64,000 nucleotides of DNA from Ignavibacteria bacterium. Its GTDB lineage: Bacteria > Bacteroidota > Ignavibacteria > SZUA-365. Below, in pieces: positions 11,942-37,723 of the stretch. Every line of letters begins with the position of its first letter. Positions within the stretch are counted from its first letter, which is position 1. The notes under the pieces are model-generated. The model saw only the letters and a list, made by a program, of their open reading frames with translations, ran no database searches and was not told where the DNA came from. Both the position numbers and the translations under genes were made by a program. The stretch covers positions 199,036 to 263,035 of the forward strand of contig JADKJW010000002.1 in NCBI GenBank assembly GCA_016720835.1, in the 5' to 3' direction.

Positions 11942-12009
11942 TACTCTCTCCAGAAATATTGAGTTCAGTACGGAACGATGGATTCGGGCGGAGGGATTCC
12001 GCCGGGTGC

Positions 12010-12168
12010 TTAGTTGTTGCCGAGGACGCGGCGCCCCTGGATGATGCGCACGAGGACGACGATCACGGCGATCACGAGTAGGATGTGGATAAAGCCGCTC
12101 ATGGTGTAGGACGTCAGGAGTCCGAGGAGCCACAGCGCGATGAGAACGACGGCGATGATGTACAGCAT
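12010..12168 (-). CDS. lmo0937-family small membrane protein (52 aa); absent from the ORF track because it is under 60 aa
   Basis: ATG..TAA encodes MLYIIAVVLIALWLLGLLTSYTMSGFIHILLVIAVIVVLVRIIQGRRVLGNN. This matches the characteristic lmo0937 family (IxxVILIVLWLLGFI...HLLLVIAVV..GRRV). Confidence 0.6.
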   Translation of the reverse strand: MLYIIAVVLIALWLLGLLTSYTMSGFIHILLVIAVIVVLVRIIQGRRVLGNN

Positions 12169-12224
12169 GGTATGTGCCTTTCAGGATGAAATGGTGCAGA
12201 ATTGTCGTGAAGCGCCGACGAAGG

Positions 12225-14219
12225 TCATTCGATGACTTCGACGAACACGTTCCTGTTGTACATTCTCCCTTCGGGGAGCGTATTCTGGAAGGTGTACTGC
12301 ATGTTGGTCTGACCGATCCCGATGGCCTGGACGTCGATGTTTTTGCTATCCTTGCCCAGCTGGTCGTCGATGATGCGCTTCGCTTCGTTCGCGCGTTCCT
12401 GCGACAGTTTCTGGTTGGCTTCCTCGTTGCCGATGATGTCGGTGTGTCCATGAACGATCACGGTGTTGCCGACATTCATGCCCGGAGCGATTTCCTTCCG
12501 GATCTTCGTCTCATACGTCGCGACCGCGTCCGCCTTGTTGTAGTCGAAGACCATGAGGTAGCGGGAGGCGTTCTTGACCTCTTTTTCCTTCCGCAGGTTG
12601 AAATTCTCCTTTTCGGTAATCTTTCTGCCATCGGGCATCGACACGACCGTGGTGGCGGTAAAGCTGCCCTGGTCCAGGCCGCGCATGATAGGCGATGCGT
12701 TGATGCGCTGATTCGATGTGGTGTAGGGTCCGTATTTTCTCACCTGATTCTCGCCCGCGATGGAAACCGTCCAGCTGCTGAACGGGGTCGATGTCCGGAC
12801 ATTGAACACCAGGTCGTTGTCGATGGAGGATTCGTCGCGGATGGTGTACTGCACCGGTTTGTACATGTCCTGGTTGCTGAACACGAAGACCACTCTGCGA
12901 TTCTCATCGTCGATCATGGATGTGAACTCGGGATTCGTCAGGGCGCTGCCGGACGGTTTCCGCGGAGGCTCCACAATGATGGTGATGCGGCTGGCCTTGA
13001 TGCCGTAATTGTCCACGAGGTAGTTCTTCACCTTCAGCGCGCATGCTTCGCCGTCCTTTTCGACGGGATCGCAGCCGCGCAGGGTGAGCTGCTCCTTCGG
13101 ATTCTTGCGCATCCGGTCGCCGTAGATGTTCAACACGTTGTAGTAATTCACCATCAGCTGGTCGACGTTCGTTTCCTGCACGGTCAGCTCGCCGGTTGTG
13201 TAGTTTGCGTTGTCCACTTCCTTGTACTTGCCGGCGTCGCCGTTCGACAGCTTGATGTACCGCGCGGGGATCTCCGCGTTGTCCTTCTCGTAGAACACGT
13301 ACGGGAGAATGGAGAAGTACCCCTTGATGTTCTTCGTGACCACTGTGTTGTCGCGGGGCATCACGATGTACACGCTCTTCTCCGCGGGTTTTTCGACCAC
13401 GGCGGCACGCGGGGCGGGCACGTAGGGTGCCTCTGTGATCTTTTCTTCCGGCTTTCTCGATTCCCAGGACAGCCTGATGCCGGCGCGGAACGTCTGCGTC
13501 GACCAGATATCCGTCGTGGAGTTCTGTGACCGCGTGATCACGGATTTCCGCTGCGCGGCGATGAAGGAGTAATCGAAGAACGGGCTGACGTAGAATGACG
13601 AATTCACGCTTCTCGACGCCTCGATGTCATACGCCACGCCGGCAGTCACGCCGAGGGAGGCAACCGGGCGATCCGGCACCTTCTGATCGGCGGCGGTCAC
13701 GTCGCCGGCATGATCGCGTTTGAAATCGAATGTTCCATGCATGTTCACGGCGATCAACGGACCCACAGTGAGGCTGAGATTGCGAATGAGATGCTGGTCG
13801 AAGCGGATGGCCGGCTCGATGGAGATGTAGCTCATGCGGGTGATGAATTTGCTTTTCGGCACCGTATATTCATCGGTGATCTCCGCATCGCGCATGTCCC
13901 ATGAAGCGCGGAACTGCACGCCCCACCAGCTGGAGGACAGGTATTCCACGAACGCGCCGCCGTAGCCCCCGAGGCCCTTGCCGTCAACGTTCTTGTCCGA
14001 TTCCGGGTTCGGGTTGTTAAAATTGTGAATACCCGGGTCGAAGATATACAGATCCTGGTACCCGAGTGAAGCCGAATTTGCATTCACGCCGAGATGAATG
14101 CCGTAGCGCCACGCCTGTGCCCGGAAGGTGTTGTCCTGCGCCTGGGCGTTGCCGGAGATGAGAAGGAGGGCACAGCCGAGCAGCATGCCCGCGGTGATAT
14201 GCTTCCAGTGATTCTTCAT
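12225..14219 (-). CDS. OmpA-family outer-membrane protein (664 aa): N-terminal beta-barrel-like region + C-terminal OmpA peptidoglycan-binding domain
   Basis: Real start at ATG 14219 (MKNHWKHITAGMLLGCALLLISGNAQAQ signal). The C-terminus VHGHTDIIGNEEANQKLSQERANEAKRII...NRNVFVEVIE is the OmpA_C motif. Off-frame junk upstream was trimmed. Confidence 0.7.
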   Translation of the reverse strand: MKNHWKHITAGMLLGCALLLISGNAQAQDNTFRAQAWRYGIHLGVNANSASLGYQDLYIFDPGIHNFNNPNPESDKNVDGKGLGGYGGAFVEYLSSSWWGVQFRASWDMRDAEITDEYTVPKSKFITRMSYISIEPAIRFDQHLIRNLSLTVGPLIAVNMHGTFDFKRDHAGDVTAADQKVPDRPVASLGVTAGVAYDIEASRSVNSSFYVSPFFDYSFIAAQRKSVITRSQNSTTDIWSTQTFRAGIRLSWESRKPEEKITEAPYVPAPRAAVVEKPAEKSVYIVMPRDNTVVTKNIKGYFSILPYVFYEKDNAEIPARYIKLSNGDAGKYKEVDNANYTTGELTVQETNVDQLMVNYYNVLNIYGDRMRKNPKEQLTLRGCDPVEKDGEACALKVKNYLVDNYGIKASRITIIVEPPRKPSGSALTNPEFTSMIDDENRRVVFVFSNQDMYKPVQYTIRDESSIDNDLVFNVRTSTPFSSWTVSIAGENQVRKYGPYTTSNQRINASPIMRGLDQGSFTATTVVSMPDGRKITEKENFNLRKEKEVKNASRYLMVFDYNKADAVATYETKIRKEIAPGMNVGNTVIVHGHTDIIGNEEANQKLSQERANEAKRIIDDQLGKDSKNIDVQAIGIGQTNMQYTFQNTLPEGRMYNRNVFVEVIE

Positions 14220-26101: not shown

Positions 26102-26716
26102 CTATGATATGAAGAAATCGACGATCCCGGTCTCGAGCGAATACTCGGCGCCGATCACGAGGAGGTCCTCGTGCAGGATCAGCTGCTCGAGCACTTCCGA
26201 TCCGTGCCGCAGGTGGTTGACCGAGGCGCGGATGTTGGCGCGGACGGCGTGCGCGACCAGCGCGTCGTGATCGTGATCGAGCTCCGTGTCCAGGAGTTCC
26301 TCGACCGACGGGCGGATGCGGTCGACGATGGAACGCAGGTTCTTCGACTGTTTCTCCGTCGGCCGGTGCAGTTCCTCCAGCGTCGCGAGGATGGCCCCGC
26401 AGCGGGAATGGCCCAGCACCACGACGAGCGGCGTGCCGAAACGCTCGGCGGCGAACTCGACGCTCCCGACCTGGGAGGGCGCGACGATGTTTCCCGCGAC
26501 GCGGATGACGAACAGGTCGCCCAATCCCTGATCGAAGATGATCTCCACCGGGACGCGCGAATCGGAACATCCGAGGATCACCGCGAAGGGTTCCTGCCCG
26601 TCGACGAGGTCGTCGGGCCGTGTCGGGTTTACGAGCGTGTCGCGGTTCCGCACGTCGGAGACGAAACGGTGATTGCCCGCTTTCAGGCGCTCGAGGGCTT
26701 CGAAGGCTGGGATCAT
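26102..26716 (-). CDS. beta-class carbonic anhydrase (204 aa)
   Basis: ATG at 26716 (MIPAFEALERLKAGNHRFV...). Zinc-ligand motifs CSDSRV and HSRCGA are present. The ATG overlaps the TGA of the upstream methyltransferase gene (cATGAtc). Confidence 0.75.
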   Translation of the reverse strand: MIPAFEALERLKAGNHRFVSDVRNRDTLVNPTRPDDLVDGQEPFAVILGCSDSRVPVEIIFDQGLGDLFVIRVAGNIVAPSQVGSVEFAAERFGTPLVVVLGHSRCGAILATLEELHRPTEKQSKNLRSIVDRIRPSVEELLDTELDHDHDALVAHAVRANIRASVNHLRHGSEVLEQLILHEDLLVIGAEYSLETGIVDFFIS

Positions 26717-27399
26717 TGGCGTCGTGCCCGTTCCGTACTCTGCCCGGGGGGATGCCCCACGTCCTTGACGCAGAGGATTGCGGCAGCATTTTCGGGATGC
26801 GCCCGGCACCACAGGTGTTGCGTGCAGAAGGATATCACGCCCCATGCCTTCCGGGGCCGGAAACGCAGCTGGTGGCCCTCCGAGCGAAGGCATTGAAGCC
26901 CGACAAGGCCGATGACGCGGTACCCCAGCGCACGCATCTCCTGCGGCGTCCATCCGGACAGATGCTCCTGGAAGTCGCCCTCCACGATTCCTGCCTGGGG
27001 AAGAAACCCGTTGGGAGTGAAGACCACCACCTTGCAGACTGCAAGAGTTTCCAGAGTCCGGAGGAACGCGAGTCCGTCGTCTTTGGAAAAATGTTCGAGC
27101 ACGTCCAGCGCGACGCAGGCATCGAACTGTCGCTCTCGAAAGTACCGACCGAGTTCCCGCGCATCAAGCAGATGGAACTCGTCGTGCGTCCCTGCTTCTC
27201 TGGCCTGTACGATATCGGGGTGATACGCGTCGGCTCCGACCAGCCATTCGCAGGAGAGGAAGCGCAACGGCGACCGTGCCCCGCACCCCACGTCAAGCAC
27301 GGAGGCGCAGTCGGCGAGCTCGCGCGCGAGTTCGATTGCACAGTCGCGGGAGGACGACAACGGCCGCGTTTCCTTCGCGATGTTGAATGTGGTTCTCAT
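26713..27399 (-). CDS. class I SAM-dependent methyltransferase (228 aa)
   Basis: Motif I VLDVGCGARSPLRF and motif post-I ALDVLEHF. It is translationally coupled to the carbonic anhydrase gene. Confidence 0.65.
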   Translation of the reverse strand: MRTTFNIAKETRPLSSSRDCAIELARELADCASVLDVGCGARSPLRFLSCEWLVGADAYHPDIVQAREAGTHDEFHLLDARELGRYFRERQFDACVALDVLEHFSKDDGLAFLRTLETLAVCKVVVFTPNGFLPQAGIVEGDFQEHLSGWTPQEMRALGYRVIGLVGLQCLRSEGHQLRFRPRKAWGVISFCTQHLWCRAHPENAAAILCVKDVGHPPGQSTERARRQ

Positions 27400-27503
27400 G
27401 CAGTCGTCTCACCAGCAGCCGGGAAATACATCGATAAGACACTATCGTTTGACAATACGGAGGCTTTCCCGAAAAACCAAAACACCCCGTCGGCGCCTTT
27501 CCG

Positions 27504-27989
27504 CTATTTGAGACTGAGCGGCGGCCCGAGCAATTCCATTCCGTGGGCGCGCCAGAGCGCGGGATCCTGAGGCGGCATGGCATCCGCTTTCGTCACTTCC
27601 CGGAAGAACGCTTCCATGCTGCCCGCGGGTGTGAAGGCCACGAGGATTCTTCCCCTCCCGTCGCCCGCGTGCGCCCAGACGTGCGGCACCATGCGCGGCC
27701 CGAGCACGGAATCGCCGGGCTTGAGGCGGAATCTCTCCTCACCGATTTCGAAGAGGAACTCCCCTTCGAGCACGTAGAACCACTCGTCCTGCGCGACGTG
27801 GAGATGCCTCGCCGGCCCGCCTTTCGCGTGGAAGATGTTCTCGAGCACGAAGAGCCCGTTGCTGCCCGCGCCCGTCACTTTGAAATCGATCTCGCTGATG
27901 CCGAGGCCGCGATGCTCGCCGAAGCGGTCGTGCCCCGCATCCACAACCACGGCTGTATTGAATGACTGCGATCTTGCCGAGTCTGTCAT
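27504..27989 (-). CDS. cupin-domain protein (161 aa)
   Basis: ATG at 27989 with GGAGGAGCAGGAA RBS (MTDSARSQSFNTAVVVDAGHDRFGEHRG...HLHVAQDEWFYVLEGEFLFEIG...). This is a two-His cupin pattern. Confidence 0.6.
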   Translation of the reverse strand: MTDSARSQSFNTAVVVDAGHDRFGEHRGLGISEIDFKVTGAGSNGLFVLENIFHAKGGPARHLHVAQDEWFYVLEGEFLFEIGEERFRLKPGDSVLGPRMVPHVWAHAGDGRGRILVAFTPAGSMEAFFREVTKADAMPPQDPALWRAHGMELLGPPLSLK

Positions 27990-28133
27990 TTCCTGCTCCT
28001 CCAGTGCACACGCTGCGGATGGCCCGCTTTGCGCATTCTCCTGAAACAGCAGGACGGGGTCAGGTGCGTTCCTCTGTCCTGGGTAGCAGAGCGCATAGGA
28101 CTGAGAATCGACGCAGTGCTGCGCTCCAAGTTC

Positions 28134-28196
28134 CAAATTCCGGATTCCGGATTCCGGATTCTGAATTCTGAATTCTGAATTCTGAATTCTGAATTC
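28134..28196 (+). repeat. heptanucleotide tandem repeat array: 1x CAAATTC, 3x CGGATTC, 5x TGAATTC (9 units, 63 bp)
   Basis: Read directly from the sequence: ..caaattc cggattc cggattc cggattc tgaattc tgaattc tgaattc tgaattc tgaattc ttcc. It lies between the stop of gene 28202..29983 and the cupin gene, 145-207 bp upstream of the cupin ATG. Confidence 0.85.
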
Positions 28197-28201
28197 TTCC
28201 C

Positions 28202-29983
28202 CTACGGCCTTCCGAACACGACCACGTGAATACTGGCATCGTGGAGTGTTCCGGAGAGATCGTACGTCTTGATCTCGCACGCGTCGGCCTGGCTCGACGA
28301 GATGACGCATATGTACGGCGTGCCGGAACTGATCACGGTCGCCACCGGCAGCGCGTCATACGAGCTGGAAAACGTGTTCTTGTACACGACGCGGTAGCGG
28401 CCGGTGCTCACACGCGACAGCGTGCAGCCAAACGCACTGAGTTGTGTCCCGGCAGCATTGATGCTCCCCCAGGCGGCACAGGTGTTGTCCTTGTACATGC
28501 CGCCCTCGACGGGCGTCGCGCTGGCGCCGAGCGAGTTCGTCGCCTCGAAATGCCGCGCCTCGCTCGTGCCGTTCGCCCAGACGTCGCCGCCGCGATTGAC
28601 GGAGTGCACCAGGGTGGGATTTCCCAGTTTCATGATGGGGGCCGTGGCGCTGCTGTTGGTGCTGACCGCGTTGATCGTCGGTACCACGCCGTCCGATACG
28701 GCATTGATCGCCGATCCGCCCGTCGCTTCCGCGTCGATGGCGTGAGCGCCTGTCGAGGTACTTTTCGCGAGTACGCGCACGGCGGGCTGCGTGGCGGAGG
28801 TGCTCTCCGAATGCAGGTAGGCGGCCCGACCGTTGCCATCCTGCCGCACTTCGATGCCGTCGCCTGCGGCGTTGTTGTCGATGTTGATGCCGTCGCCCGT
28901 GCCGCTGTGCGTCATGGCAATGCCGCCGCCCGTGCCGCCGGTGGTGTTGATCTCGAGAATGTCGCCGGTGCTGGAGGCCGTCTTCGTGAACCGCGCGACC
29001 GGGCCGTTGCCGCTGTTGTTCGCGGTGATGGCCGCGCTGACATCGCTGCTGTTCGACGCCTGCACGGCATTGCCGTTCCCCGCGAACGCGCTGAAGGCAT
29101 CGGCGCTCGTGGACGTGCCGTTGTTCGACGCGGTAAGCGCCGCCTTGGTCGTCGCCGCGTTGTCGATGCCGAACACGCCCGCGCTACCCGTGCCGGTGTT
29201 CTCGATCTCGAAGGCGATGCCGGTCGACGCGGCGGTGCCCTTGTACGGCAACGTGAATCCGGGAGACGCCGCGGCCGCGATCGTGATCGTGTGCGCGGTG
29301 GCATCGGGCGTGATCGTGATGTTGCTGCCCGCGACGAGGCCGATATCACCCCCGTCGTTCTTGACGCCCCCGACGCTCGAGACGATGTTCGGGATGATTT
29401 TCGCGGCGCTGATCGTCGCGTCCTGAATTTTCGCGCCGGTGACCGCGCCGTCCGCGATGCGGGTCGCGCTGAACGGGCCGAGCACATCACCCTGCAGGAG
29501 CTGCGTGCCCGATGCCGAGATCTGCAGCGTGCCGCCCGTGTTCGTGACGGTGATCCCCGTGCCCGCCGTCACTTCCGTTTCCTTGAGCATCGCCGGATCG
29601 AGCACGCGCTCCGCGACGCGGGAGGCGAAGCTGTAGGCCGACGTCGTGAGTCTCACCCGCGGCGAGTATTCCGAACCTCCCGCGAGCGCGATGCCGAGAT
29701 ACAGCGGCTTGTCGAATGCCAGGGCGATCGGATTTCCCGAGCCAAGGACGACGGAAAACAATCCGCTGCGCACCTGCACGGAGGACTGGGTTTCCGTCCA
29801 CAGCGACGGACCGCCGGAGGCGTTTTCGTACAGCGAGAATGTGAACGCAAACGTGCCGTCGGAAACGGGCGTCCCTGTAATATCCGTCAGGTAACCCTGG
29901 TAACTCATGAGCGACGGAACGGGCTGCGCAACAGCGGTTGCGGCGATCGCGCAGAGGATCGCAGCGAGATACACGTGCTTCAT
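28202..29983 (-). CDS. secreted tail-fiber-like repeat protein (593 aa), no T9SS CTD
   Basis: ATG at 29983 with GAGGAGGG RBS. Signal MKHVYLAAILCAIAATAVAQ. The N-terminal module SYQGYLTDITGTPVSDGTFAFTFSLYENASGGPSLWTETQSSVQVRSGLFSVVLG resembles the conserved N-terminal repeat of Bacteroidota 'tail fiber domain-containing' proteins. It has a long G/T/A/S/N-rich low-complexity middle and a C-terminal globular domain. Confidence 0.5.
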   Translation of the reverse strand: MKHVYLAAILCAIAATAVAQPVPSLMSYQGYLTDITGTPVSDGTFAFTFSLYENASGGPSLWTETQSSVQVRSGLFSVVLGSGNPIALAFDKPLYLGIALAGGSEYSPRVRLTTSAYSFASRVAERVLDPAMLKETEVTAGTGITVTNTGGTLQISASGTQLLQGDVLGPFSATRIADGAVTGAKIQDATISAAKIIPNIVSSVGGVKNDGGDIGLVAGSNITITPDATAHTITIAAAASPGFTLPYKGTAASTGIAFEIENTGTGSAGVFGIDNAATTKAALTASNNGTSTSADAFSAFAGNGNAVQASNSSDVSAAITANNSGNGPVARFTKTASSTGDILEINTTGGTGGGIAMTHSGTGDGINIDNNAAGDGIEVRQDGNGRAAYLHSESTSATQPAVRVLAKSTSTGAHAIDAEATGGSAINAVSDGVVPTINAVSTNSSATAPIMKLGNPTLVHSVNRGGDVWANGTSEARHFEATNSLGASATPVEGGMYKDNTCAAWGSINAAGTQLSAFGCTLSRVSTGRYRVVYKNTFSSSYDALPVATVISSGTPYICVISSSQADACEIKTYDLSGTLHDASIHVVVFGRP

Positions 29984-30212
29984 GGAACCCTCCTCTTGAA
30001 AGGTCGAAGGCAGCACGCAGTCCGGCTCCCGCAGAACAGTCGCATCAACAACCCGGACTGCAGCCCGATCCATGCGAGAACCCGCACGCGTGTCTGCCCG
30101 TCACGAAATAAAATTATGCGGACAAGATACTCAGGAAATATTTTTGGTGAAAACAACGCCGGGAGCCGACGCGCGACGGCGCGCCACGGCCTCGCTGATG
30201 TGTGTGGGACGT

Positions 30213-30425
30213 TCAGTTCCCTGATGAATCTGATCCACCATCATCATCAATCGAATCCTTCGCCGCATCCCGTGCCGTGAGGTACTTCGCGCCCGCCTCG
30301 CGAAACAACAACGCACGCTCGCGAAGCGCGTCGAGCATACGGAGTTTCTCTTCGATCGGCAAGGCGGCCAACTGTTGCCTGAACGCAGTCTTGCTCGCAG
30401 TCACGGCATCCCAATCTGTTGTCAC
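30213..30425 (-). CDS. small protein (70 aa) resembling the 'putative addiction module component' family (TIGR02574-like)
   Basis: GTG start overlapping the upstream gene's stop (aaGTGAca). The motif ..FRQQLAALPIEEKLRMLDALRERAL.. fits the LPxxERxxLxxxL pattern of that family. Acidic C-terminal tail. Confidence 0.35.
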   Translation of the reverse strand: MTTDWDAVTASKTAFRQQLAALPIEEKLRMLDALRERALLFREAGAKYLTARDAAKDSIDDDGGSDSSGN

Positions 30426-30958
30426 TTCTTCTCCAACGGATGCTGCTCTTGAAACGATGTCCAGCGGTCACCCAACCCGTTTCGATCGACTATGGATTCG
30501 AAACGGCTCATCGACAATGCACCGGCTTGCAAAAATTGAAGCAACCGTGTCGTATCCTTGACACGTCCCGTTTCAAGAGCGATTGCAGCGAGGTGTTCCG
30601 GTGAAAACACCCAAACAGGAGTATCGTCGACGCGCATCACAACTGCGTCAGCGAGCGCTTCATCAGCCAACGCTCCCGTCGTCGCGAGAAACTGTACAGG
30701 CCAGCCTTCGATCATGACGTACTCGCCCGCCGGCGAGTATCCCAGATGCTGCAAGTATTCGAAAACCGCACCGAGGCTGAGCAACAGCGAACCCGGAACC
30801 TGTTCGATATGAATGAACACATCCACATCCAGAGTGCTGATAGGTTCAAGATAGAACGTCGCACCCACTGCACCGCCGATCGCGTAGGATTGAATCACGC
30901 CGTCCGCCTTCATGCGATTGATGACCTTCAGCGCTCCGACGATGTTCATACTATTCAT
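30422..30958 (-). CDS. nucleotidyltransferase-fold-like hypothetical protein (178 aa)
   Basis: ATG at 30958 with GAGGAG RBS (MNSMNIVGALKVINRMKADGVIQSYAIGGAVGATFYLEPISTLDVDVFIH...). The GG-x9-DxD-like arrangement suggests a minimal nucleotidyltransferase. It is coupled to the 70-aa ORF downstream. Family assignment weak. Confidence 0.35.
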   Translation of the reverse strand: MNSMNIVGALKVINRMKADGVIQSYAIGGAVGATFYLEPISTLDVDVFIHIEQVPGSLLLSLGAVFEYLQHLGYSPAGEYVMIEGWPVQFLATTGALADEALADAVVMRVDDTPVWVFSPEHLAAIALETGRVKDTTRLLQFLQAGALSMSRFESIVDRNGLGDRWTSFQEQHPLEKK

Positions 30959-31083
30959 GTTGCTCCTCGCACTGCATGCTAACAAATGTCCGCCTGATTG
31001 ACAACAGCGTGCCTTCCGGGTGGCGACCCTCGGAAATAGGTGAGATGCGAGATTCTCACTGCGAACATCGCATATCCGATATC

Positions 31084-31132
31084 TGGATTCTGAATTCTGA
31101 ATTCTGAATTCTGAATTCTGGATTCTGTATTC
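31084..31132 (+). repeat. second heptanucleotide tandem repeat array: TGGATTC, 4x TGAATTC, TGGATTC, TGTATTC (7 units, 49 bp)
   Basis: Read directly from the sequence. It has the same unit and orientation as the array at 28134. It is 126-174 bp upstream of the ATG of gene 30422..30958 and just downstream of the terminator of the large oxidoreductase gene. Confidence 0.85.
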
Positions 31133-31135
31133 CCG

Positions 31136-31167
31136 TCCACAAAGCACGAAGCCCTCTCTCGAGGGCT
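31136..31167 (-). terminator. probable intrinsic terminator after the oxidoreductase operon
   Basis: Hairpin AGCCCTC-tctc-GAGGGCT 30 nt past the stop at 31197. On the minus strand it is followed by TCGTGCTTTGTGG (moderately U-rich). Confidence 0.4.
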
Positions 31168-31196
31168 CCGTAATCAACAAACATCCCGATCAGAGT

Positions 31197-34100
31197 CTAC
31201 GCCTTGATCTGCTTGATCCGGTCAGTGACGCGCGCGTCGATTTCGAGGACGTTGGCGGTGGCGGCGTTGGTCGGAAGCACCTGGTCGGAGTAGACGATGA
31301 AGTTCGCCTTGCCGTCCGCCGTCTTGAACGCGCCGCGGAGCAGGCCGTTCATGCCGTGCAGCGCGATGATGCCTTCGAGTTCGCGGTGCGTGTCCTCCGC
31401 ACTGCCGTAGCCGTCGCTGCCGCCCATGCGGTGCGCGAGATCGGCGATGAGGTCCAGCGTGTGCCTGCCGCTGAGCGGTTCGCCGATGGGCGTGCTCTCC
31501 TGCCGCATGCCGCACCAGTTGGTGAGGTGCCCCTTCGTCTCGAGGTAGCCCGAGAGCGGCAGGAACACGTCGGCCGCCTGGGCGGTCTCGGTGAGGAACA
31601 TGTCGCCCACCACCACGAACTCGAGGTTCTGCACGAAGGCGTTATACTCGGACGAGACGATCGGATTCTCGCCGAAGATGAACGCCGCCCGCACCTTGTC
31701 CTCGCGCATCTTGCGCGCGAGATTGCTGCCCGAGGCCGCGGCGAGCGCGCGCACATCGGTGTTCCACAGCGCCTGGACGGCGTCCGCCACCGGACCCGCG
31801 TGCATCGGCGCTCCGCCCGGCAGCAGCTTGCTGTCGAACCCCGCGAGCGTCATGCCCGTGTGGTTGGCCTGCCCGGAGAGCAGCGCGAGCCCGCTGCCCG
31901 GCACGCCGATCCTGCCGAGAACCATGAGCAGCGTGGCGAGCGCGCGCAGGTCGCTGGATACGCGGTCGATGCGGCTGTCGATGTTGTACCACGCGACGAT
32001 CTTCTTCTTCGGATCCGAGAGCATGTCGGCGATCTTCAGGATCACCGCTTCCGACACGCCGGTCACCGAACTCACGTCGCCGATGTCGTTCTTCAGCACA
32101 TGCGCCTGGAACGCGTCGAAGTGCGCGGTGCGTCCGTCGATGAAGGCCTGATCCGCGGCGCCGCGGCGCAGCAGTTCGGCGATGACGCCGTTGAGCAGGA
32201 CGGTGGCCGTGCCGCGGCGCGGATCGGCCCAGGCGCCCGCGAAGGGCACGAGATCGATCTTCGCGGAGTTGATCACGATGGCTTCCGCGCCGTGCTTGAT
32301 GCGGCGCTTCACCTGCCAGCCGAGCACCGGATTCTCGCCCGTCGGATTGCCGCCGAGGAAGATGTAGAGGTCGGCGTCGCGCACCTCGTCCGCGTCCACC
32401 GTGGAGACGGTGGCGCCGAGCATGTCGTCGAGCGCGTGGTAGTCGGCCTCACTCGCGAGATGATGGAAGGAGGCGATGGTGTTGGTGCCGATGGCGACGC
32501 GCGCGAACTTGCCCGCGAGGTACAATTCCTCGTTGCTGAGCTTCGGCGATGCCGCGACGAGAATGTGGTCGGCGCTGTGGTCCTCGATCACCTTCTTCAT
32601 GCCCTTCTCCGCGGCCTCGAGCGCTTCGTCCCAGCTCGCCTCCACGAGACGTCCGCCCTTCTTCACCATCGGGCGCGTGGCGCGCGAGCCGTCGAGGTAG
32701 TGCTGGTATCCGAAGCGGCCCTTCACGCACAGTTCGCCGTGATTCGGTTCCGCGTCCGGCGCGGCGCCGGTCACGTAGAACAGGTCGGACGTCTTCACCT
32801 GCAGCGAGAGGGTGCAGCCGACGGAGCAGTAATTGCAGACGTTCGGGACGGCTTCCATGTCCCACGGCCCCTGGCGGCGGAACGGCATCAGCTCGACGAG
32901 CGCGCCCGTGGGGCACACGTCGATGCAGTTGCCGCAGGACACGCAGTTCGTCTCGTGCAGCGCCTTCTCCATGGCCGGCTTCACGATGGTGCGGAAGCCG
33001 CGATTGACGAAGCCGAGCGCCGCGACGTTGAGGATTTCGGCGCAGGTGTTCACGCAGCGCCCGCAGCGGATGCACTTGTTGGAATCGATCTTGATGAAGG
33101 GATGGCGAGAGTCCACCTTGTACTTGTTGAACTCGCCCACGAAGCGCTCCTGCTGCACGCCGTACTCGGTGCAGTAATCCTGCAGGCGGCAGGCCAGGCC
33201 CGCGTCGCAGCCGCATTCGGCGCAGCGCAGCGCTTCCTCGATGGCGGACGTCGTGTCGTAGGCCATTTCCACTTCGTGGAAATCGTTCTTCCGTTCGCCG
33301 GCCGGACGTTCGTGCGCGTGATGCCTGCCGCTCTTTTCGATCGGAGGCAGATCCTTCTCGGTGAGCTTCTGGAAGTTGTCGCGCTTGCTCTCGAAGCGTT
33401 TCGTGAGCGGCGTGACGACGCCCGTTTCGAGGTAGAGCATGATCGCGTCGGCGGCCATCTTGCCGGCGGCGATCGCGTCGATCGCGTCGGCCGGACCCGT
33501 CACGACGTCGCCGCCGGAGAAGACGCCCGGTCGCTCGGTGTGGAAGGTGCCCTTCGCGGCTTCGATGGTCTTCCACTTCGTGATCTTGATGCCCGCGTCG
33601 TTGTGCACGCCCGTCAAATCGGCTTCCTGGCCGATCGCCGAGATCACCCAGTCGCACGGGAAGTCGTGCTCGGAGCCCTTCAGCTCCACGGGACGGCGTC
33701 GTCCGCTGGCGTCGGGTTCGCCGAGTTCCATGGTGATGCATTCGACGGAGACCACGCGGTCGTTCTCCACATTGACGCGCGTCGGCGCCTGCAGGAATTC
33801 CATGCGCACGCCTTCTTCTTCGGCGGCGACGATCTCCACCATGTTGGCGGGCATTTCCTTGCGCGTGCGGCGGTAGAGCAGCACCACTTCGTCCGCGCCG
33901 AGGCGCAGCGAGGTGCGCGCGGCGTCGATGGCGGTGTTGCCGCCGCCGACCACGACGACGCGGCCCTTGACCGGCGGCGCGCTGCCCATGGTCACCTGCT
34001 TGAGGAATTCGACGCCGCTGAGCACGCCGGGGACATTCTCATTCTCGACCTGCATCGGCTTGCCCACCTGCGCGCCAAGCGCGACGAAGACGGACTGATA

Positions 34101-34931
34101 GCCCTGCGTGAAGAGATCGTCCATCTGGAAATCGACGCCGAGACGCTGGTTCACGTGCACGTCAACGCCGAGCTTCGTGACCCAGCCGATTTCCTTGTCG
34201 AGCACGGCCTTCGGGAGGCGGTACTCGGGAATGCCGTAGCGGAGCATGCCGCCCATTTCGGGGAGCGCCTCGTAGATCGTCGGTTCGTAGCCCTCGCGCA
34301 CGAGGTAGTACGCGCAGGTGACGCCGGCGGGACCGCCGCCGATGACCGCGACGCGCTTGCCGTTGCGCGGTTTCACGTCCGGCGTCCACATGTCGCCCGC
34401 CATGTCGAGATCCGACGCGTAGCGCTTGAGGAAGTCGATGCCCACCGGCTCGTCGATGAGGTTGCGGCGGCAGTTGAGCTCGCACTTGCGCGTGCAGACG
34501 CGGCCGCAGACGGACGGCAGCGGGTTCTTCTCCTTGATCAGCTCGATCGCCTCGGTGAACTTTCCGAAGCTGATGAGCGACATGTAGCCCTGGATGTCGA
34601 TGTCCGCCGGACAGGCGAGGCGGCAGGGGCCGAAGCAGTCCGCGTAATGATCGGACAGCAGCAGCTCGAGGCAGGTCTTGCGGGCGCGGCTGACGCGTTC
34701 GGAGCGCGTCTGGATGACCATGCCCTCGGCCACCTTCGTCGAGCAGGCGGGGAAGAGGCGGTTCTGCCCCTCCACCTCCACCACGCAGAGAAAGCAGGAG
34801 CCGAAGGGCGGGAGTTTCTCGTCGTAGCAGAGGGTCGGGATGGTATCGATGCCCTGCTCGTGACAGACCGCGAGGATGGTCTTGTCAGGGGACGCGGTGA
34901 CGGTGTTGCCGTTGATCGTGAGTGTGAGCAT
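31197..34931 (-). CDS. multidomain oxidoreductase fusion (1244 aa): 2Fe-2S ferredoxin + GltD/NfnB-like FAD/NAD(P) flavoprotein + NuoG-type [4Fe-4S] modules + formate-dehydrogenase-family molybdopterin (MopB) domain lacking the Cys/Sec Mo ligand
   Basis: N-terminal 2Fe-2S Fd (..CHEQGIDTIPTLCYDEKLPPFGSCFLCVVEV..). GltD-like Cys cluster plus Rossmann motifs (VAVIGGGPAGVTCAYYL; VVVVGGGNTAIDAART). His/Cys Fe-S segments (CAECGCDAGLACRLQDYC; CIRCGRCVNTC; CVSCGNCIDVCP). MopB 4Fe-4S (CNYCSVGCTLS..ELCVKGRFG). By eye-alignment to FdhF (..VDCCARVUHGPSV..) the corresponding stretch is ..TIASFHHLASEADY.., so no Cys or Sec is present. The antisense 1250-aa ORF 31356..35108 is junk. Confidence 0.7.
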   Translation of the reverse strand: MLTLTINGNTVTASPDKTILAVCHEQGIDTIPTLCYDEKLPPFGSCFLCVVEVEGQNRLFPACSTKVAEGMVIQTRSERVSRARKTCLELLLSDHYADCFGPCRLACPADIDIQGYMSLISFGKFTEAIELIKEKNPLPSVCGRVCTRKCELNCRRNLIDEPVGIDFLKRYASDLDMAGDMWTPDVKPRNGKRVAVIGGGPAGVTCAYYLVREGYEPTIYEALPEMGGMLRYGIPEYRLPKAVLDKEIGWVTKLGVDVHVNQRLGVDFQMDDLFTQGYQSVFVALGAQVGKPMQVENENVPGVLSGVEFLKQVTMGSAPPVKGRVVVVGGGNTAIDAARTSLRLGADEVVLLYRRTRKEMPANMVEIVAAEEEGVRMEFLQAPTRVNVENDRVVSVECITMELGEPDASGRRRPVELKGSEHDFPCDWVISAIGQEADLTGVHNDAGIKITKWKTIEAAKGTFHTERPGVFSGGDVVTGPADAIDAIAAGKMAADAIMLYLETGVVTPLTKRFESKRDNFQKLTEKDLPPIEKSGRHHAHERPAGERKNDFHEVEMAYDTTSAIEEALRCAECGCDAGLACRLQDYCTEYGVQQERFVGEFNKYKVDSRHPFIKIDSNKCIRCGRCVNTCAEILNVAALGFVNRGFRTIVKPAMEKALHETNCVSCGNCIDVCPTGALVELMPFRRQGPWDMEAVPNVCNYCSVGCTLSLQVKTSDLFYVTGAAPDAEPNHGELCVKGRFGYQHYLDGSRATRPMVKKGGRLVEASWDEALEAAEKGMKKVIEDHSADHILVAASPKLSNEELYLAGKFARVAIGTNTIASFHHLASEADYHALDDMLGATVSTVDADEVRDADLYIFLGGNPTGENPVLGWQVKRRIKHGAEAIVINSAKIDLVPFAGAWADPRRGTATVLLNGVIAELLRRGAADQAFIDGRTAHFDAFQAHVLKNDIGDVSSVTGVSEAVILKIADMLSDPKKKIVAWYNIDSRIDRVSSDLRALATLLMVLGRIGVPGSGLALLSGQANHTGMTLAGFDSKLLPGGAPMHAGPVADAVQALWNTDVRALAAASGSNLARKMREDKVRAAFIFGENPIVSSEYNAFVQNLEFVVVGDMFLTETAQAADVFLPLSGYLETKGHLTNWCGMRQESTPIGEPLSGRHTLDLIADLAHRMGGSDGYGSAEDTHRELEGIIALHGMNGLLRGAFKTADGKANFIVYSDQVLPTNAATANVLEIDARVTDRIKQIKA

Positions 34932-34939
34932 GGGGCACC

Positions 34940-36697
34940 TCAGTTCTTTTCAACCGCATCGAAGCGGCAGACGGTGAAGCATTTTCCGCATTTGATGCAT
35001 TTGTCCTGTTCGACCACGTGCAGCACCTTCTTGCCGCCGAGGATGGCCTCGGTGGGACAGGCGCGCGCGCAGACCTGGCAGCCGGTGCAGGCCTCGTTGA
35101 TGGTGTAGGTCAGCAGCGCCTGGCACTCGTGCGCCGGACATTTCTTGTCGACGATATGCGCGACATACTCGTCGCGGAAGTACTTCAGCGTCGTGATGAC
35201 GGGATTCGGAGCTGTCTGTCCGAGACCGCAGAGCGAGGCCGCGCGGATCTGGTCGCTGAGTTCCGAGAGGTTGTCGAGGTCGTCCATCGTGCCTTCGCCG
35301 CTCGTGATGCGCACGAGGATTTCGAGCATGCGCTTGGTGCCGATGCGGCAGAAGGTGCACTTGCCGCAGGATTCGGCCTGCGTGAAGGTGAGGAAGAAGC
35401 GCGCGACGTCCACCATGCACGTCGTTTCGTCCATCACGATGAGGCCGCCCGAGCCCATGATGGCGCCGGTGCGGTTGATCTGCTGATAGTCGATCGGAAG
35501 CTCGCACATTTCGGCGGGGATGCAGCCGCCCGACGGGCCGCCCATCTGCACGGCCTTGAACTTCTTGTCGTCGTTGATGCCGCCGCAGATGTCGAAGAGG
35601 ATCGAGTTGATGGTGATGCCCATGGGCACTTCCACGAGGCCGGTGCGCCGCACCTTGCCGGCCATCGCGAACACCTTGGTGCCCTTGCTGTCGGCGGTGC
35701 CGTAGGCCGCGAAGGCCGCGCCGCCGTTGGTGATGATCCACGGGATGTTCGCGAAGGTCTCGACGTTGTTGATGCTCGTCGGCTTGCCCCAGAGGCCCGA
35801 GATGGCCGGGAAGGGCGGCCGGAAGCGCGGCATCCCGCGGCGGCCCTCGATGGACGCGATGAGCGCCGTCTCCTCGCCGCACACGAAGGCGCCGGCGCCT
35901 TCCTTGATGCGCACGTCGAAGGCGAAGTCGGTCCCGAGGATCTTCTCGCCGAGCATGCCCCGCTTCTTCGCCTGCGCGATGGCCTGGCGCAGCAGCGCCA
36001 CGGCTTTCGGATATTCGGCGCGGCAGTAGATCACGCCCTCGTCGGCGCCGATCGCGTAGCCGGCGATCATCATGCCCTCGAGCACGGCGTGGGGGTCGCC
36101 CTCGAGCACCGAACGGTCCATGAACGCGCCGGGATCGCCCTCGTCGGCGTTGCAGATGATGTACTTCTTGTCGCCCGCGGCGCCGCGCGTGAATTTCCAC
36201 TTCGTGCCCGTCGGGAAGCCACCGCCGCCGCGCCCGCGGAGGCCGGAGGCGAGCACGTCCTCGATGACGGCTTCGGGCGTCATCGTGGTGACGGCCTTCT
36301 CGATGGCCGTGTAGCCGCCCGTGCCGATGTACTCGTCGATGGAACCCGGATCGATGCAGCCGCAGTTGCGGAGCACGATGCGGACCTGGTTTTCGAAGAA
36401 GCCCGGTTCGCGCCCTTCGCCGATCACGATCCAGTCGTCGATCGCCTCGTCTTTCACGAGATCCTCTTCCACGATGCGGCCGACGCGCTCGGGCGTCACT
36501 TCGCCGTAGGTGTAGGACGCGCCGCTGCCGTTGCTGATTTCCACGAGCGGCTCGCGATAGCACATGCCGATGCAGCCCGTCTCTTTCAGGATGAATGCGC
36601 CCGGACGCTCCTTGAGCTCGTCCATGAAGGCCTTGTACACTTTTTCCCCGCCGGCGGAAATGCCGCAGGTGCCGAGTCCGATGGTCACGGTTTTCAT
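34940..36697 (-). CDS. NuoF/HydB-like NAD(P)H-binding flavoprotein subunit with N-terminal thioredoxin-like 2Fe-2S domain and C-terminal 2x[4Fe-4S] ferredoxin domain (585 aa)
   Basis: FMN/NADH motifs (GRGGGGFPTGTKWKF; ICNADEGDPGAFMDR). The 4Fe-4S N3 site is ESCGKCTFCRIG. C-terminal CTGCQVCARACP / CIKCGKCFTVCRF. The alternative-frame ORF 34950..36563 is junk. Confidence 0.8.
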   Translation of the reverse strand: MKTVTIGLGTCGISAGGEKVYKAFMDELKERPGAFILKETGCIGMCYREPLVEISNGSGASYTYGEVTPERVGRIVEEDLVKDEAIDDWIVIGEGREPGFFENQVRIVLRNCGCIDPGSIDEYIGTGGYTAIEKAVTTMTPEAVIEDVLASGLRGRGGGGFPTGTKWKFTRGAAGDKKYIICNADEGDPGAFMDRSVLEGDPHAVLEGMMIAGYAIGADEGVIYCRAEYPKAVALLRQAIAQAKKRGMLGEKILGTDFAFDVRIKEGAGAFVCGEETALIASIEGRRGMPRFRPPFPAISGLWGKPTSINNVETFANIPWIITNGGAAFAAYGTADSKGTKVFAMAGKVRRTGLVEVPMGITINSILFDICGGINDDKKFKAVQMGGPSGGCIPAEMCELPIDYQQINRTGAIMGSGGLIVMDETTCMVDVARFFLTFTQAESCGKCTFCRIGTKRMLEILVRITSGEGTMDDLDNLSELSDQIRAASLCGLGQTAPNPVITTLKYFRDEYVAHIVDKKCPAHECQALLTYTINEACTGCQVCARACPTEAILGGKKVLHVVEQDKCIKCGKCFTVCRFDAVEKN

Positions 36698-36701
36698 GGC
36701 A

Positions 36702-37208
36702 TCACTCCTGCATCGCGGTGGCGGTGGCGCGGACGAGCCGCTTCTGTTCTTTCATCAGCTTGATGAGCTTCTGCGAGGTCAGGCGTCCGTGCGTCTCGCC
36801 GTTGATGGTGATGACGGGCGCCAGCGAGCAGCAGCCGATGCAGGCCACGGACAAGAGGCTGAACTGTCCGTCGTCGCTGGTTTCATCGTAGCTGATGCCG
36901 AGTTCGTCCTGGATGGTGTTGTACACCGAGCGCGCGCCGTTGACGTGGCAGGCCGTGCCGTTGCAGACCTTCAGCACGTTCTTGCCGAGCGGCTTGGTGC
37001 GGAACTGGGCGTAGAAGGTGACGACGCCGTAAATCTCCGCCGCGGGAATGCCCGTCACGTGGCTGATGTAGTCGATCGCCTTCTCGGAGACGTACCCGTA
37101 CGTGTCCTGGGCGGACTGCAGCAGCGGAATCAGGGCGCCGGCGTGACCGTCGAACTTCCAGAGTTCGACGTTGAACGGCTTGAAGTCCAGAGTGTGGGTT
37201 TCTTCCAT
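36702..37208 (-). CDS. NuoE/HydC-like thioredoxin-fold [2Fe-2S] subunit (168 aa)
   Basis: ATG at 37208 (MEETHTLDFKPFNVELWKF...). The 2Fe-2S ligands are ..VCNGTACHVNG.. and ..VACIGCCSLAPV... It ends 5 nt before the NuoF-like gene. Confidence 0.75.
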   Translation of the reverse strand: MEETHTLDFKPFNVELWKFDGHAGALIPLLQSAQDTYGYVSEKAIDYISHVTGIPAAEIYGVVTFYAQFRTKPLGKNVLKVCNGTACHVNGARSVYNTIQDELGISYDETSDDGQFSLLSVACIGCCSLAPVITINGETHGRLTSQKLIKLMKEQKRLVRATATAMQE

Positions 37209-37228
37209 GTGCGAACCTGTGGTGCGGT

Positions 37229-37723
37229 CTAGAGGTGGGAGAGATTGATGACCCAGTCGTGTTTCATGCGGAGCACGCCGTCCATGCCGCGGAGGCGGTC
37301 GCCGATCGTCGCTTCGAGATCCTCGAAACTGCTGCCGCGGAGCAGGGCGACGATGTCGCATTCCCCGGTCGTCATCGAGCAGAACACGACGTGGGGATCC
37401 GCTTTCATGGCGTCGCGCACGGCATCGCGCGACTCCGGCTCCGTGTCCAGATACACGTAGCCGTGACAGGCGTCGTCGTCGGGCGTCGCGGCGCCTTCAT
37501 CGTCGGTTTCGATGTCGAAGCGCTCGATGTGGCCGATGCCCGGCAGGGCGGCAATGCCGCAGGGCAGTTCGGGACCGTCGAGCAGCACCTTCATCACGAG
37601 ATTGTGCTGGCCCTCCACCGCGTCCCAGCGAAGGACGCCCGGGCAGGTCCTGACGGCCTCCACGGCCGGCAGCATGGAATTCGTGTCAGGGAAACGCGCG
37701 ACGACGTAGGCATGGGTGATCAT
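37229..37723 (-). CDS. stand-alone tandem RAM-domain (Lrp/AsnC C-terminal ligand-binding domain-like) protein (164 aa)
   Basis: ATG at 37723 with AAGGAG RBS. There are two ~75-aa repeats (MITHAYVVARFPDTNSMLPAVEAVRTCPGVLRWDAVEGQHNLVMKVLL... / CHGYVYLDTEPESRDAVRDAMKADPHVVFCSMTTGECDIVALLRG...) resembling the AsnC-type regulatory domain. No HTH is present. Confidence 0.45.
   Translation of the reverse strand: MITHAYVVARFPDTNSMLPAVEAVRTCPGVLRWDAVEGQHNLVMKVLLDGPELPCGIAALPGIGHIERFDIETDDEGAATPDDDACHGYVYLDTEPESRDAVRDAMKADPHVVFCSMTTGECDIVALLRGSSFEDLEATIGDRLRGMDGVLRMKHDWVINLSHL

Follow-up and report, generated by a model that had tools for sequence, protein, structure and literature searches.

Intergenic heptanucleotide repeat arrays in a 64-kb stretch of an Ignavibacteria genome and a neighboring gene pair that includes a protein with a predicted MenT1-like fold

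Tandem arrays of 7-nt units have been described in detail in Xanthomonas and Nostoc, where simple sequence repeats (SSRs) are built from the units GGGAATC and GGGGAYT, respectively (Rehm et al. 2015, PMC4692102). Xanthomonas campestris contains 186 GGGAATC-type arrays (PMC4692102). In these two genera, 89–93% of the heptameric SSRs are intergenic; most separate co-directional genes, with mean distances of 28 nt to the open reading frame (ORF) upstream and 160 nt to the ORF downstream. Their position is conserved between species while both length and sequence vary extensively (PMC4692102). They are transcribed without a detectable regulatory role, and the genes associated with them are functionally random, so that phase variation was judged unlikely by the authors (PMC4692102). 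The same paper credits Mrazek et al. 2007 with the over-representation of heptamers among long bacterial SSRs, possibly due to DNA polymerase slippage (PMC4692102). A different heptamer, TAACTGA, forms dispersed repeats common to Beggiatoaceae, Cyanobacteria, and Bacteroidetes (MacGregor 2015, PMC4679880). Here, we analyzed two heptanucleotide arrays in a stretch of 64,000 nt (hereafter the window) from an Ignavibacteria bacterium (assembly GCA_016720835.1, contig JADKJW010000002.1, positions 199,036–263,035).

The two arrays match the intergenic heptameric SSR class in every feature compared. They are likely to be independent SSRs of the (GAATTCW)n / (GGATTCY)n type and not the ends of a genetic element, and the genes between them would then be two unrelated items in consecutive intergenic intervals. 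An earlier sequence-only reading of this DNA had considered heptamer SSRs to be rare in high-GC bacteria (GC, guanine plus cytosine content), which is wrong in general because heptamers are over-represented among long SSRs (PMC4692102).

Position, units, and variation of the arrays

Both arrays consist of head-to-tail 7-nt units with a homogeneous center and degenerate ends, and they lie in intergenic regions in identical orientation, 2.9 kb apart (coordinates of all features are listed in table 1). Read directly on the plus strand, positions 28134–28196 hold nine units (CAAATTC, three CGGATTC, and five TGAATTC), to which a degenerate tenth unit, CAAGTTC, is added at 28127–28133. Positions 31084–31132 hold seven units (TGGATTC, four TGAATTC, TGGATTC, and TGTATTC), and in gene sense a degenerate unit, GATATCG, comes after them (31077–31083). 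The sequence-only reading had described the same coordinates, unit composition, orientation, and intergenic location, all of which agree with the sequence and the gene positions. Using Tandem Repeats Finder, array 1 was delimited to 28136–28197 (period 7, 8.9 copies, 94% matches) and array 2 to 31082–31132 (period 7, 7.3 copies, 93% matches), and no other comparable period-7 array was detected across the window. When three mismatches at most were allowed, a 20-mer of the unit likewise matched the window in the two arrays only, and 100 shuffles gave no match. A looser pattern yielded 26 matches in the window versus 2.7 expected; five of these lie outside both arrays, each being a single 12-mer with one mismatch. 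The gene-sense strand, (GAATTCA)n, is the one free of stop codons, and the palindromic GAATTC core makes each array self-complementary. The possibility that the arrays reflect a restriction-site decoy or site avoidance was discarded, as the window contains 29 GAATTC sites outside the arrays and thus shows no avoidance of this sequence.

All genes flanking the arrays are on the minus strand, in the order NuoE-like gene, NuoF-like gene, Fdh-like fusion gene, hairpin, array 2, promoter-like match, a pair consisting of a nucleotidyltransferase (NTase)-like gene and a small partner, fiber-like gene, array 1, and cupin gene. Array 1 begins 5 nt past the stop codon of the fiber-like gene, next to which its edge is sharp and perfect; the ATG of the cupin gene (27989) is 145 nt away if the array is taken as 28134–28196 and ~140 nt away if it is taken as 28127–28196. 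Array 2 begins 65 nt past the stop codon of the fusion gene, which closes the NuoE/NuoF-like operon, and lies 126 nt ahead of the ATG at 30958. In both cases, the gap to the preceding stop codon is shorter than that to the following start codon (5 vs. 145 nt and 65 vs. 126 nt).

Array 2 has a terminator-like hairpin on its upstream side and a promoter-like site on its downstream side. The hairpin ends the Fdh-like operon 13 nt ahead of the array and went unflagged in a consensus terminator scan. The promoter-like site (31004–30976) is 80 bp downstream of the array and ~20 nt upstream of the NTase-like start; it is a consensus match only, and chance alone would give 0.9 matches of this kind in the region. 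For array 1, the consensus scan identified no terminator-like site between the fiber stop codon and the cupin start, although one was observed after the cupin gene (27499–27479), and array 1 is thus probably an intercistronic or 3′ untranslated region (UTR) element. A sigma-70-type consensus scan revealed no promoter spanning array 1 or between it and the cupin gene, which is a weak negative.

Comparison with close relatives indicated that the arrays hold fixed positions while their units turn over, the variation being between strains. The 178-aa NTase-like protein is encoded, with identical sequence, on three short wastewater-metagenome contigs, two of which (L001 and L002) span array 2 and are 97.6–98.7% identical to the window overall. 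Array 2 has four GAATTCA cores in the window and three in each of these two independent assemblies. For array 1, a contig from one of those wastewater samples (L141) carries a cupin gene and a fiber-gene 3′ end that are 92.6% and 81% identical to those of the window. Its array is kept in position, 5–6 nt past the fiber stop codon, with eight units versus ten in the window (GAATCCA, GAATTCA, two GAATCCA, GAATTCA, GAATCCG, GAATTCT, and GAATCTG). The Logan contig L140 (k = 31), from another relative, starts exactly at the array edge, as expected where a repeat broke the assembly. Both number and composition of units thus differ between the window and its close relatives (L001, L002, and L141), which bears out the earlier claim that these SSRs are mutable, and the arrays can be used as strain markers. 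Established SSR biology suggests that slipped-strand mispairing is the cause of the unit changes.

To place the arrays in a wider context, we scanned one genome per species (596 Gb) for GAATTCTGAATTCTGAATTC; by our own estimate, chance would give less than about one match in a search of this size. Arrays of (GAATTCT)n were detected at at least 120 loci from about 12 phyla. The matches listed include cyanobacteria (Nostoc, Calothrix, and others, with many arrays per genome), Bacteroidota, Ignavibacteriae, Planctomycetota, Verrucomicrobiota, Acidobacteriota, Clostridia (Firmicutes), Proteobacteria, Desulfobacterota, Nitrospirota, Patescibacteria (candidate phyla radiation, CPR), and others, and their GC ranges from 32% to 69%. 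The genome of the window is not among the matches listed. Also among these matches, several metagenome-assembled genomes (MAGs) are represented by multiple loci, and two to four arrays are present in many of the 8-kb loci, implying that the arrangement in the window, with arrays in successive intergenic regions, is not unusual. A search of the literature for the literal repeat sequence retrieved nothing relevant.

The placement of these arrays relative to genes was then analyzed by a stop-codon-anchored test, in which an ORF of at least 80 codons had to end between −10 and +30 nt of an array, with random positions in the same loci as control. Such an ORF end was found for 34% of 145 arrays on the GAATTCA strand and for 14% on the GAATTCT strand, compared with 5.9% of random positions. 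A second test with a wider window, which allows stop codons supplied by the array itself, gave 27% and 33% (10.7% random) for non-cyanobacterial loci, and 44% and 10% (3.6% random) for cyanobacterial loci. Array 1 fits this gene-3′-end placement seen in other phyla.

Several further features of the arrays in other genomes were observed. The stop-codon/array junction at 28197–28204 of the window, TAGGGGAA followed directly by GAATTCA, occurs verbatim in a Bryobacteraceae MAG (L070, ~905–915), and a G-rich run (GGGGA or GAGG) precedes many arrays of other phyla on the GAATTCA strand. In an activated-sludge Bacteroidetes MAG (L004, 5198–5554), a 357-bp compound heptamer array of ~51 units runs through blocks of CCTAATT, CTGAATT, CCGTATT, and TCGYATT, a drift of the unit along one array. 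In another locus (L124, 2500–2700), a canonical terminator hairpin past a distantly related orthologue of the Fdh-like gene is directly followed by (GATGGC)4 and ~15 units of GAAAACC/GAAACC, a different repeat in an equivalent post-terminator position.

The unit itself is not special. In viral contigs, we counted 15 stretches of GAATTCT and 47, 19, and 13 of the same-composition controls GATTACT, GTATACT, and GATATCT, and array-bearing loci also hold other heptamer units, such as GACTCCT. The idea of GAATTCT as a special, horizontally spread unit is therefore not supported. Given that control units are as frequent and that GAATTC is not avoided, what is seen here is how abundant heptameric SSRs are in general, an already described class. 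The premise of the sequence-only reading that such arrays are special is not supported by this comparison; what we found across genomes is a larger dispersed repeat family without relation to these genes, an outcome that the reading had itself considered.

Explanations for the arrays

In the favored explanation of independent SSRs, each array would fill the spacer past the 3′ end of one minus-strand gene, 126–145 nt ahead of the next co-directional gene. Units of 7 nt would be gained, lost, and homogenized via slipped-strand mispairing at replication, and the self-complementary GAATTC core, which would let a single strand fold back, probably aids slippage. An effect on expression, if any, might come from a transcribed stem-loop spacer of variable length (3′ UTR or intercistronic) that alters read-through or mRNA 3′-end stability. 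We infer that this route is more likely than a resetting of −35/−10 spacing. Phase variation via promoter spacing is unlikely, as the only promoter-like site is the one 80 bp downstream of array 2.

Some observations weigh against independent SSRs. Two arrays only 2.9 kb apart in 64 kb have a chance of ~9% under uniform placement, which is mildly suggestive of a link, and the count of two for the host genome comes from the 64-kb window only; the arrays may also once have been a single one that was split by an ancient insertion. The control of unit frequency covers viral contigs, not the genome collection. Moreover, the arrays persist across 7–19% flank divergence, and this persistence may reflect selection for a function.

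In a rival explanation, the arrays would be contingency or "rheostat" SSRs, in which slippage in unit number tunes or switches the downstream gene, that is, the cupin gene for array 1 and the NTase-like pair for array 2. Copy number indeed differs between strains, the arrays are 126–145 nt upstream of start codons, and there is a precedent in Haemophilus influenzae, where 7-bp SSRs upstream of hmw1A and hmw2A change their unit number by slippage. The heptanucleotide SSRs upstream of hmw1A grade expression, for which an RNase III-targeted structure in the 5′ UTR is required (PMC8262952, PMC12721329), and this system offers a plausible route by which unit number could grade expression via a transcribed leader. 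However, the hmw SSR has mapped promoters on one side and the start codon of an adhesin gene on the other, and its effect on expression was measured (PMC8262952, PMC12721329), whereas the arrays studied here have no bracketing promoter and are followed by a cupin gene and a toxin–antitoxin (TA)-like pair. Unit changes in array 2 would leave the −35/−10 spacing of the promoter-like site beyond it unaffected, and array 1, with no promoter before the cupin gene and no terminator after the fiber gene in the consensus scans, is probably intercistronic. The published heptamer SSR families with functionally random genes also speak against this possibility, phase variation having been judged unlikely for them (PMC4692102). 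Considering also that a cupin enzyme and a TA-like pair are not typical phase-variable targets and that the variation was observed between strains and not within one population, we regard a switch or rheostat as unlikely.

Alternatively, the arrays might be functional RNA stem-loops comparable to repetitive extragenic palindromic (REP) sequences or bacterial interspersed mosaic elements (BIMEs), an analogy taken from REP biology in Escherichia coli. As quasi-palindromic hairpins in a 3′ UTR or between cistrons, they would shield upstream mRNA against 3′ exonucleases, attenuate read-through, or stall terminating ribosomes where the stop codon is no more than about 15 nt away. The GAATTC core makes the arrays self-complementary, array 1 begins 5 nt past a stop codon, and arrays are enriched at ORF 3′ ends across phyla. 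The array RNAs are predicted to fold better than shuffled sequences (z = −2.7 to −3.3). The predicted RNA fold of array 1 has −20.9 kcal/mol (z = −3.3) and that of array 2 −7.8 kcal/mol (z = −2.8), but the latter is weak and its centroid structure is unpaired. The flanks neither covary nor are conserved, and the arrays have no Rfam match (E-value ≤ 1). In addition, GGGAATC, TAACTGA, and GACTCCT arrays occupy the same position yet are not self-complementary (PMC4692102, PMC4679880; GACTCCT from the loci analyzed here). A dedicated stem-loop function is thus also improbable, to about the same degree as a rheostat.

The sequence-only reading had further suggested that the arrays are direct repeats delimiting an inserted or excisable module made of the fiber gene and the NTase-like pair. 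Such a module may have been inserted within an array that was originally single, and recombination between the resulting two arrays could remove it again. The same orientation, the same core unit, and the distance of 2.9 kb are compatible with this, as are the sharp edge of array 1 beside the fiber stop codon, the low GC of the pair region, and the mobile appearance of the pair, which is found in defense loci elsewhere. However, beyond the SSR the two sites share no homology: shifted comparisons of the flanks fall to ~64–66% identity, and no other direct or inverted repeats link them. A larger dispersed element could be rejected for the same reason. Pfam searches of the genes between and beside the arrays and of ten large ORFs (~7.6–42 kb) gave no recombinase, integrase, or transposase; the screened ORFs, a subset of those in the interval, contained NuoE/F/G-like, CotH, BNR, GT, GH130, and type IX secretion system (T9SS) proteins. 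The segment between the arrays is not one compositional unit either, since the fiber gene has the GC of its surroundings (64–68%) and the two-gene pair with its flanking spacers ~55%.

Comparison with relatives points in the same direction. The junction of Fdh-like gene, array 2, and pair is kept in L001 and L002, and that of fiber gene, array 1, and cupin gene in L141 (cupin protein 93% identical); no empty site was found among these relatives carrying either junction. In a Joint Genome Institute (JGI) contig available as proteins only (cupin 92%), the spacing from the upstream ORF to the cupin gene is likewise 212 nt. A metagenome scan with the C-terminus of the Fdh-like protein retrieved only relatives at most 58% identical at the C-terminus (60–70% over the whole protein), whose downstream genes are unrelated, and a cupin homologue with 79% identity (P0124) has a different neighborhood without an array; sharing no synteny, these more distant relatives are uninformative on this question. 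None of 20 homologous NTase-like pairs elsewhere is accompanied by heptamer arrays, and other genomes with such arrays commonly carry them in successive intergenic regions. We found nothing in support of the arrays as cassette ends; that they enclose 2.9 kb is most likely a coincidence, and an excisable module has a very small probability, the smallest of the explanations considered here.

A more speculative possibility, which we consider highly unlikely, is that arrays after gene ends are recombination-prone "landing pads". An ancestral array past the Fdh-like operon would have been split by capture of the MenT1-like pair, with or without the fiber gene. In a softer version, the arrays would act as adjustable stem-loops between cistrons and so balance the expression of neighboring genes against each other. 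If landing pads exist, such SSRs would be integrase-independent sites of gene capture and gene loss in many phyla. Independent SSRs remain the favored explanation, and the outcome for this locus is a correction: the arrays should be annotated as hypervariable intergenic heptamer SSRs, not as the borders of a cassette or as a phase switch that has been demonstrated.

Genes between and beside the arrays

Table 1. Coordinates of the arrays and neighboring features in the window
Feature	Position	Strand	Remarks
Cupin_2 protein gene	27504–27989	minus	Pfam; downstream of array 1
Heptamer SSR array 1	28127–28196	minus	Gene sense: 5 GAATTCA, 3 GAATCCG, GAATTTG, GAACTTG (10 units)
593-aa secreted fiber-/adhesin-like beta-repeat protein	28202–29983	minus	IPP94_03615; native GC
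70-aa two-helix partner with acidic tail (predicted)	30213–30425	minus	GTG start overlaps NTase-like stop (GTGA)
178-aa protein, MenT1-like minimal nucleotidyltransferase fold (predicted)	30422–30958	minus	IPP94_03625; NCBI start ATG 30949
Sigma-70-like promoter match, TTGTCA-17-TAGCAT, extended TG	30976–31004	minus	Consensus match only
Heptamer SSR array 2	31084–31132	minus	Gene sense: GAATACA, GAATCCA, 4 GAATTCA, GAATCCA
Terminator-like 12-bp hairpin with GAGA loop, then GCUUUGUGG	31145–31172	minus	Centroid RNA fold
1244-aa fusion (2Fe-2S / GltD-like flavoprotein / NuoG-Fdh-like molybdopterin)	31197–34931	minus	Pfam
NuoF-like gene	34940–36697	minus	Pfam
NuoE-like gene	36702–37361	minus	Pfam

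The more promising lead in this region is the pair of genes between array 2 and the fiber gene, whose coupling through a GTGA overlap had been pointed out before and agrees with the sequence. The 178-aa protein has no match in Pfam, NCBIfam, or PADLOC (E-value ≤ 0.1) or in PHROG, matches neither the DUF1814/AbiEii model nor the MenT1 sequence, and has no sequence match in PDB even with a profile of 41 sequences. It has 4,324 homologues, and all of those named by their source are called "hypothetical protein"; the closest ones other than itself are at most 61% identical and belong to other phyla. An AlphaFold2 (AF2) model built with 41 sequences (predicted local distance difference test, pLDDT, 91.1; predicted template modeling score, pTM, 0.86) was compared with PDB using Foldseek. 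The top five hits were Mycobacterium tuberculosis MenT1 chains (E-values 2e-6 to 8e-5, template modeling scores 0.62–0.69), followed by other minimal nucleotidyltransferases. T42 and D44, which form a T-x-D element within a GG-x14-DVD motif, are invariant in the 41 homologues.

The 70-aa partner has 215 homologues. Neither this protein (E-value ≤ 0.1) nor 60 of its relatives matched TIGR02574 or another antitoxin model in NCBIfam and Pfam. Thus, of the identities that had been assigned to the pair, the NTase-like one is supported by the fold match and the T-x-D motif, whereas a TIGR02574-like partner is not, as no model matched. Two homologues of the 178-aa protein that were looked up occur in 20 contigs (L142–L161), in all of which an overlapping gene for a partner of 65–66 aa is present downstream. 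In most of these contigs, which come from other phyla, the pair is located between hsdR and hsdS/hsdM in Type I restriction-modification (R-M) operons, and in some it is beside AbiEii, Fic, or RhuM genes. This context recalls that of PrrC, a tRNA nuclease embedded in a Type I R-M locus. Based on its GC (~55% vs. 64–68%) and on its nearest homologues being at most 61% identical and in other phyla, the pair was probably acquired horizontally, as a candidate TA or defense module.

Among known systems, the pair is most similar to MenAT1 (Rv0078A/Rv0078B): both have a minimal NTase of ~180 aa, and the predicted fold here best matches MenT1. T39 and D41 of MenT1 (PMC10435456) are paralleled by T42 and D44, and the partner, a predicted helical protein of ~70 aa, is close in size to MenA1 (68 aa, PMC10435456). 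On the other hand, menA1 is usually upstream of menT1, whereas here the NTase-like gene comes first and the small gene second; a sequence-level match to DUF1814/AbiEii or MenT1 is missing; and homologues of the pair, unlike MenAT1, are embedded in Type I R-M operons. What emerges is an unnamed MenT1-fold family with more than 4,000 homologues, no Pfam model, and a conserved small partner, often within Type I R-M operons, which is a candidate TA or defense module.

The 593-aa protein appears, from its sequence, to be a fast-evolving surface protein: its closest full-length homologue is 68% identical, and its 3′ part has 81% nucleotide identity in L141. Its N-terminus resembles a signal peptide by eye, without use of a predictor. 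Residues 13–84 gave a sub-threshold NCBIfam match to Bdello_MAT_N (mosaic adhesive trimer fiber family of Bdellovibrio), and homologues carry PF13884 (Peptidase_S74) or YadA domains or are named "tail fiber". No match to a T9SS C-terminal domain (CTD) was detected in it. The earlier description as a fiber-like protein lacking such a domain is therefore upheld. Just upstream of the ribosome-binding region of this gene (29995–30075 of the window), ~50 nt are replaced by unrelated sequence in L001 (1165–1215), which apart from this stretch is 97.6% identical to the window.

Upstream of the cupin gene, the ~90 nt just 5′ of the start codon (27990–28085) are well conserved in the window, L141, and L140, and the whole post-array spacer is 84.6% identical between the window and L141, compared with 81% for the neighboring fiber coding sequence. 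This conservation suggests a functional leader or promoter ahead of the cupin gene; the stretch 27990–28085 matched no Rfam family. Downstream of the cupin gene (26102–27503), a methyltransferase-like ORF (26713–27399) overlaps the long N-terminal extension of a carbonic anhydrase ORF, unlike in the JGI relative, where a second cupin gene and a DinB_2 gene precede carbonic anhydrase. Elsewhere in the window, a 1602-aa Big_5/ice-binding-like protein (7643–12451), which carries a T9SS CTD, contains a 321-bp tandem repeat at 10566–11143 (1.8 copies, 75% matches).

Comparison with described heptanucleotide repeats

Taken across genomes, arrays of a single heptamer unit whose core is palindromic are found beside gene 3′ ends in about a dozen phyla. 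The over-representation of heptameric SSRs, earlier known mainly from Xanthomonas, cyanobacteria, and Beggiatoaceae, is now extended to Ignavibacteria and many uncultured lineages.

The dispersed TAACTGA and cyanobacterial short tandemly repeated repetitive (STRR) sequences resemble the arrays of the window in being short, tandem, and intergenic and, across genomes, dispersed, with the same unit in distant phyla. In both the TAACTGA-type repeats and the arrays here, one strand has stop codons in all three frames and the other is open. The TAACTGA sets, however, are mostly located a few nucleotides upstream of start codons, suggesting translational control (PMC4679880), whereas the arrays here adjoin stop codons and are more than 120 nt from the next start.

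The closest resemblance is to the SSRs of Xanthomonas and Nostoc. Like them, the arrays described here are made of 7-nt units, are intergenic and near the upstream stop codon between co-directional genes, keep their position while their units vary, and are associated with functionally unrelated genes in a high-GC host. The difference lies in the unit and in the number: the units here are not G-rich, cannot form G-quadruplexes, and possess a palindromic GAATTC core, and there are two arrays in 64 kb compared with ~186 per genome in Xanthomonas. Even so, the CGGAATC units of array 1 (GAATCCG in the phase of table 1) are one base off the GGGAATC of Xanthomonas.

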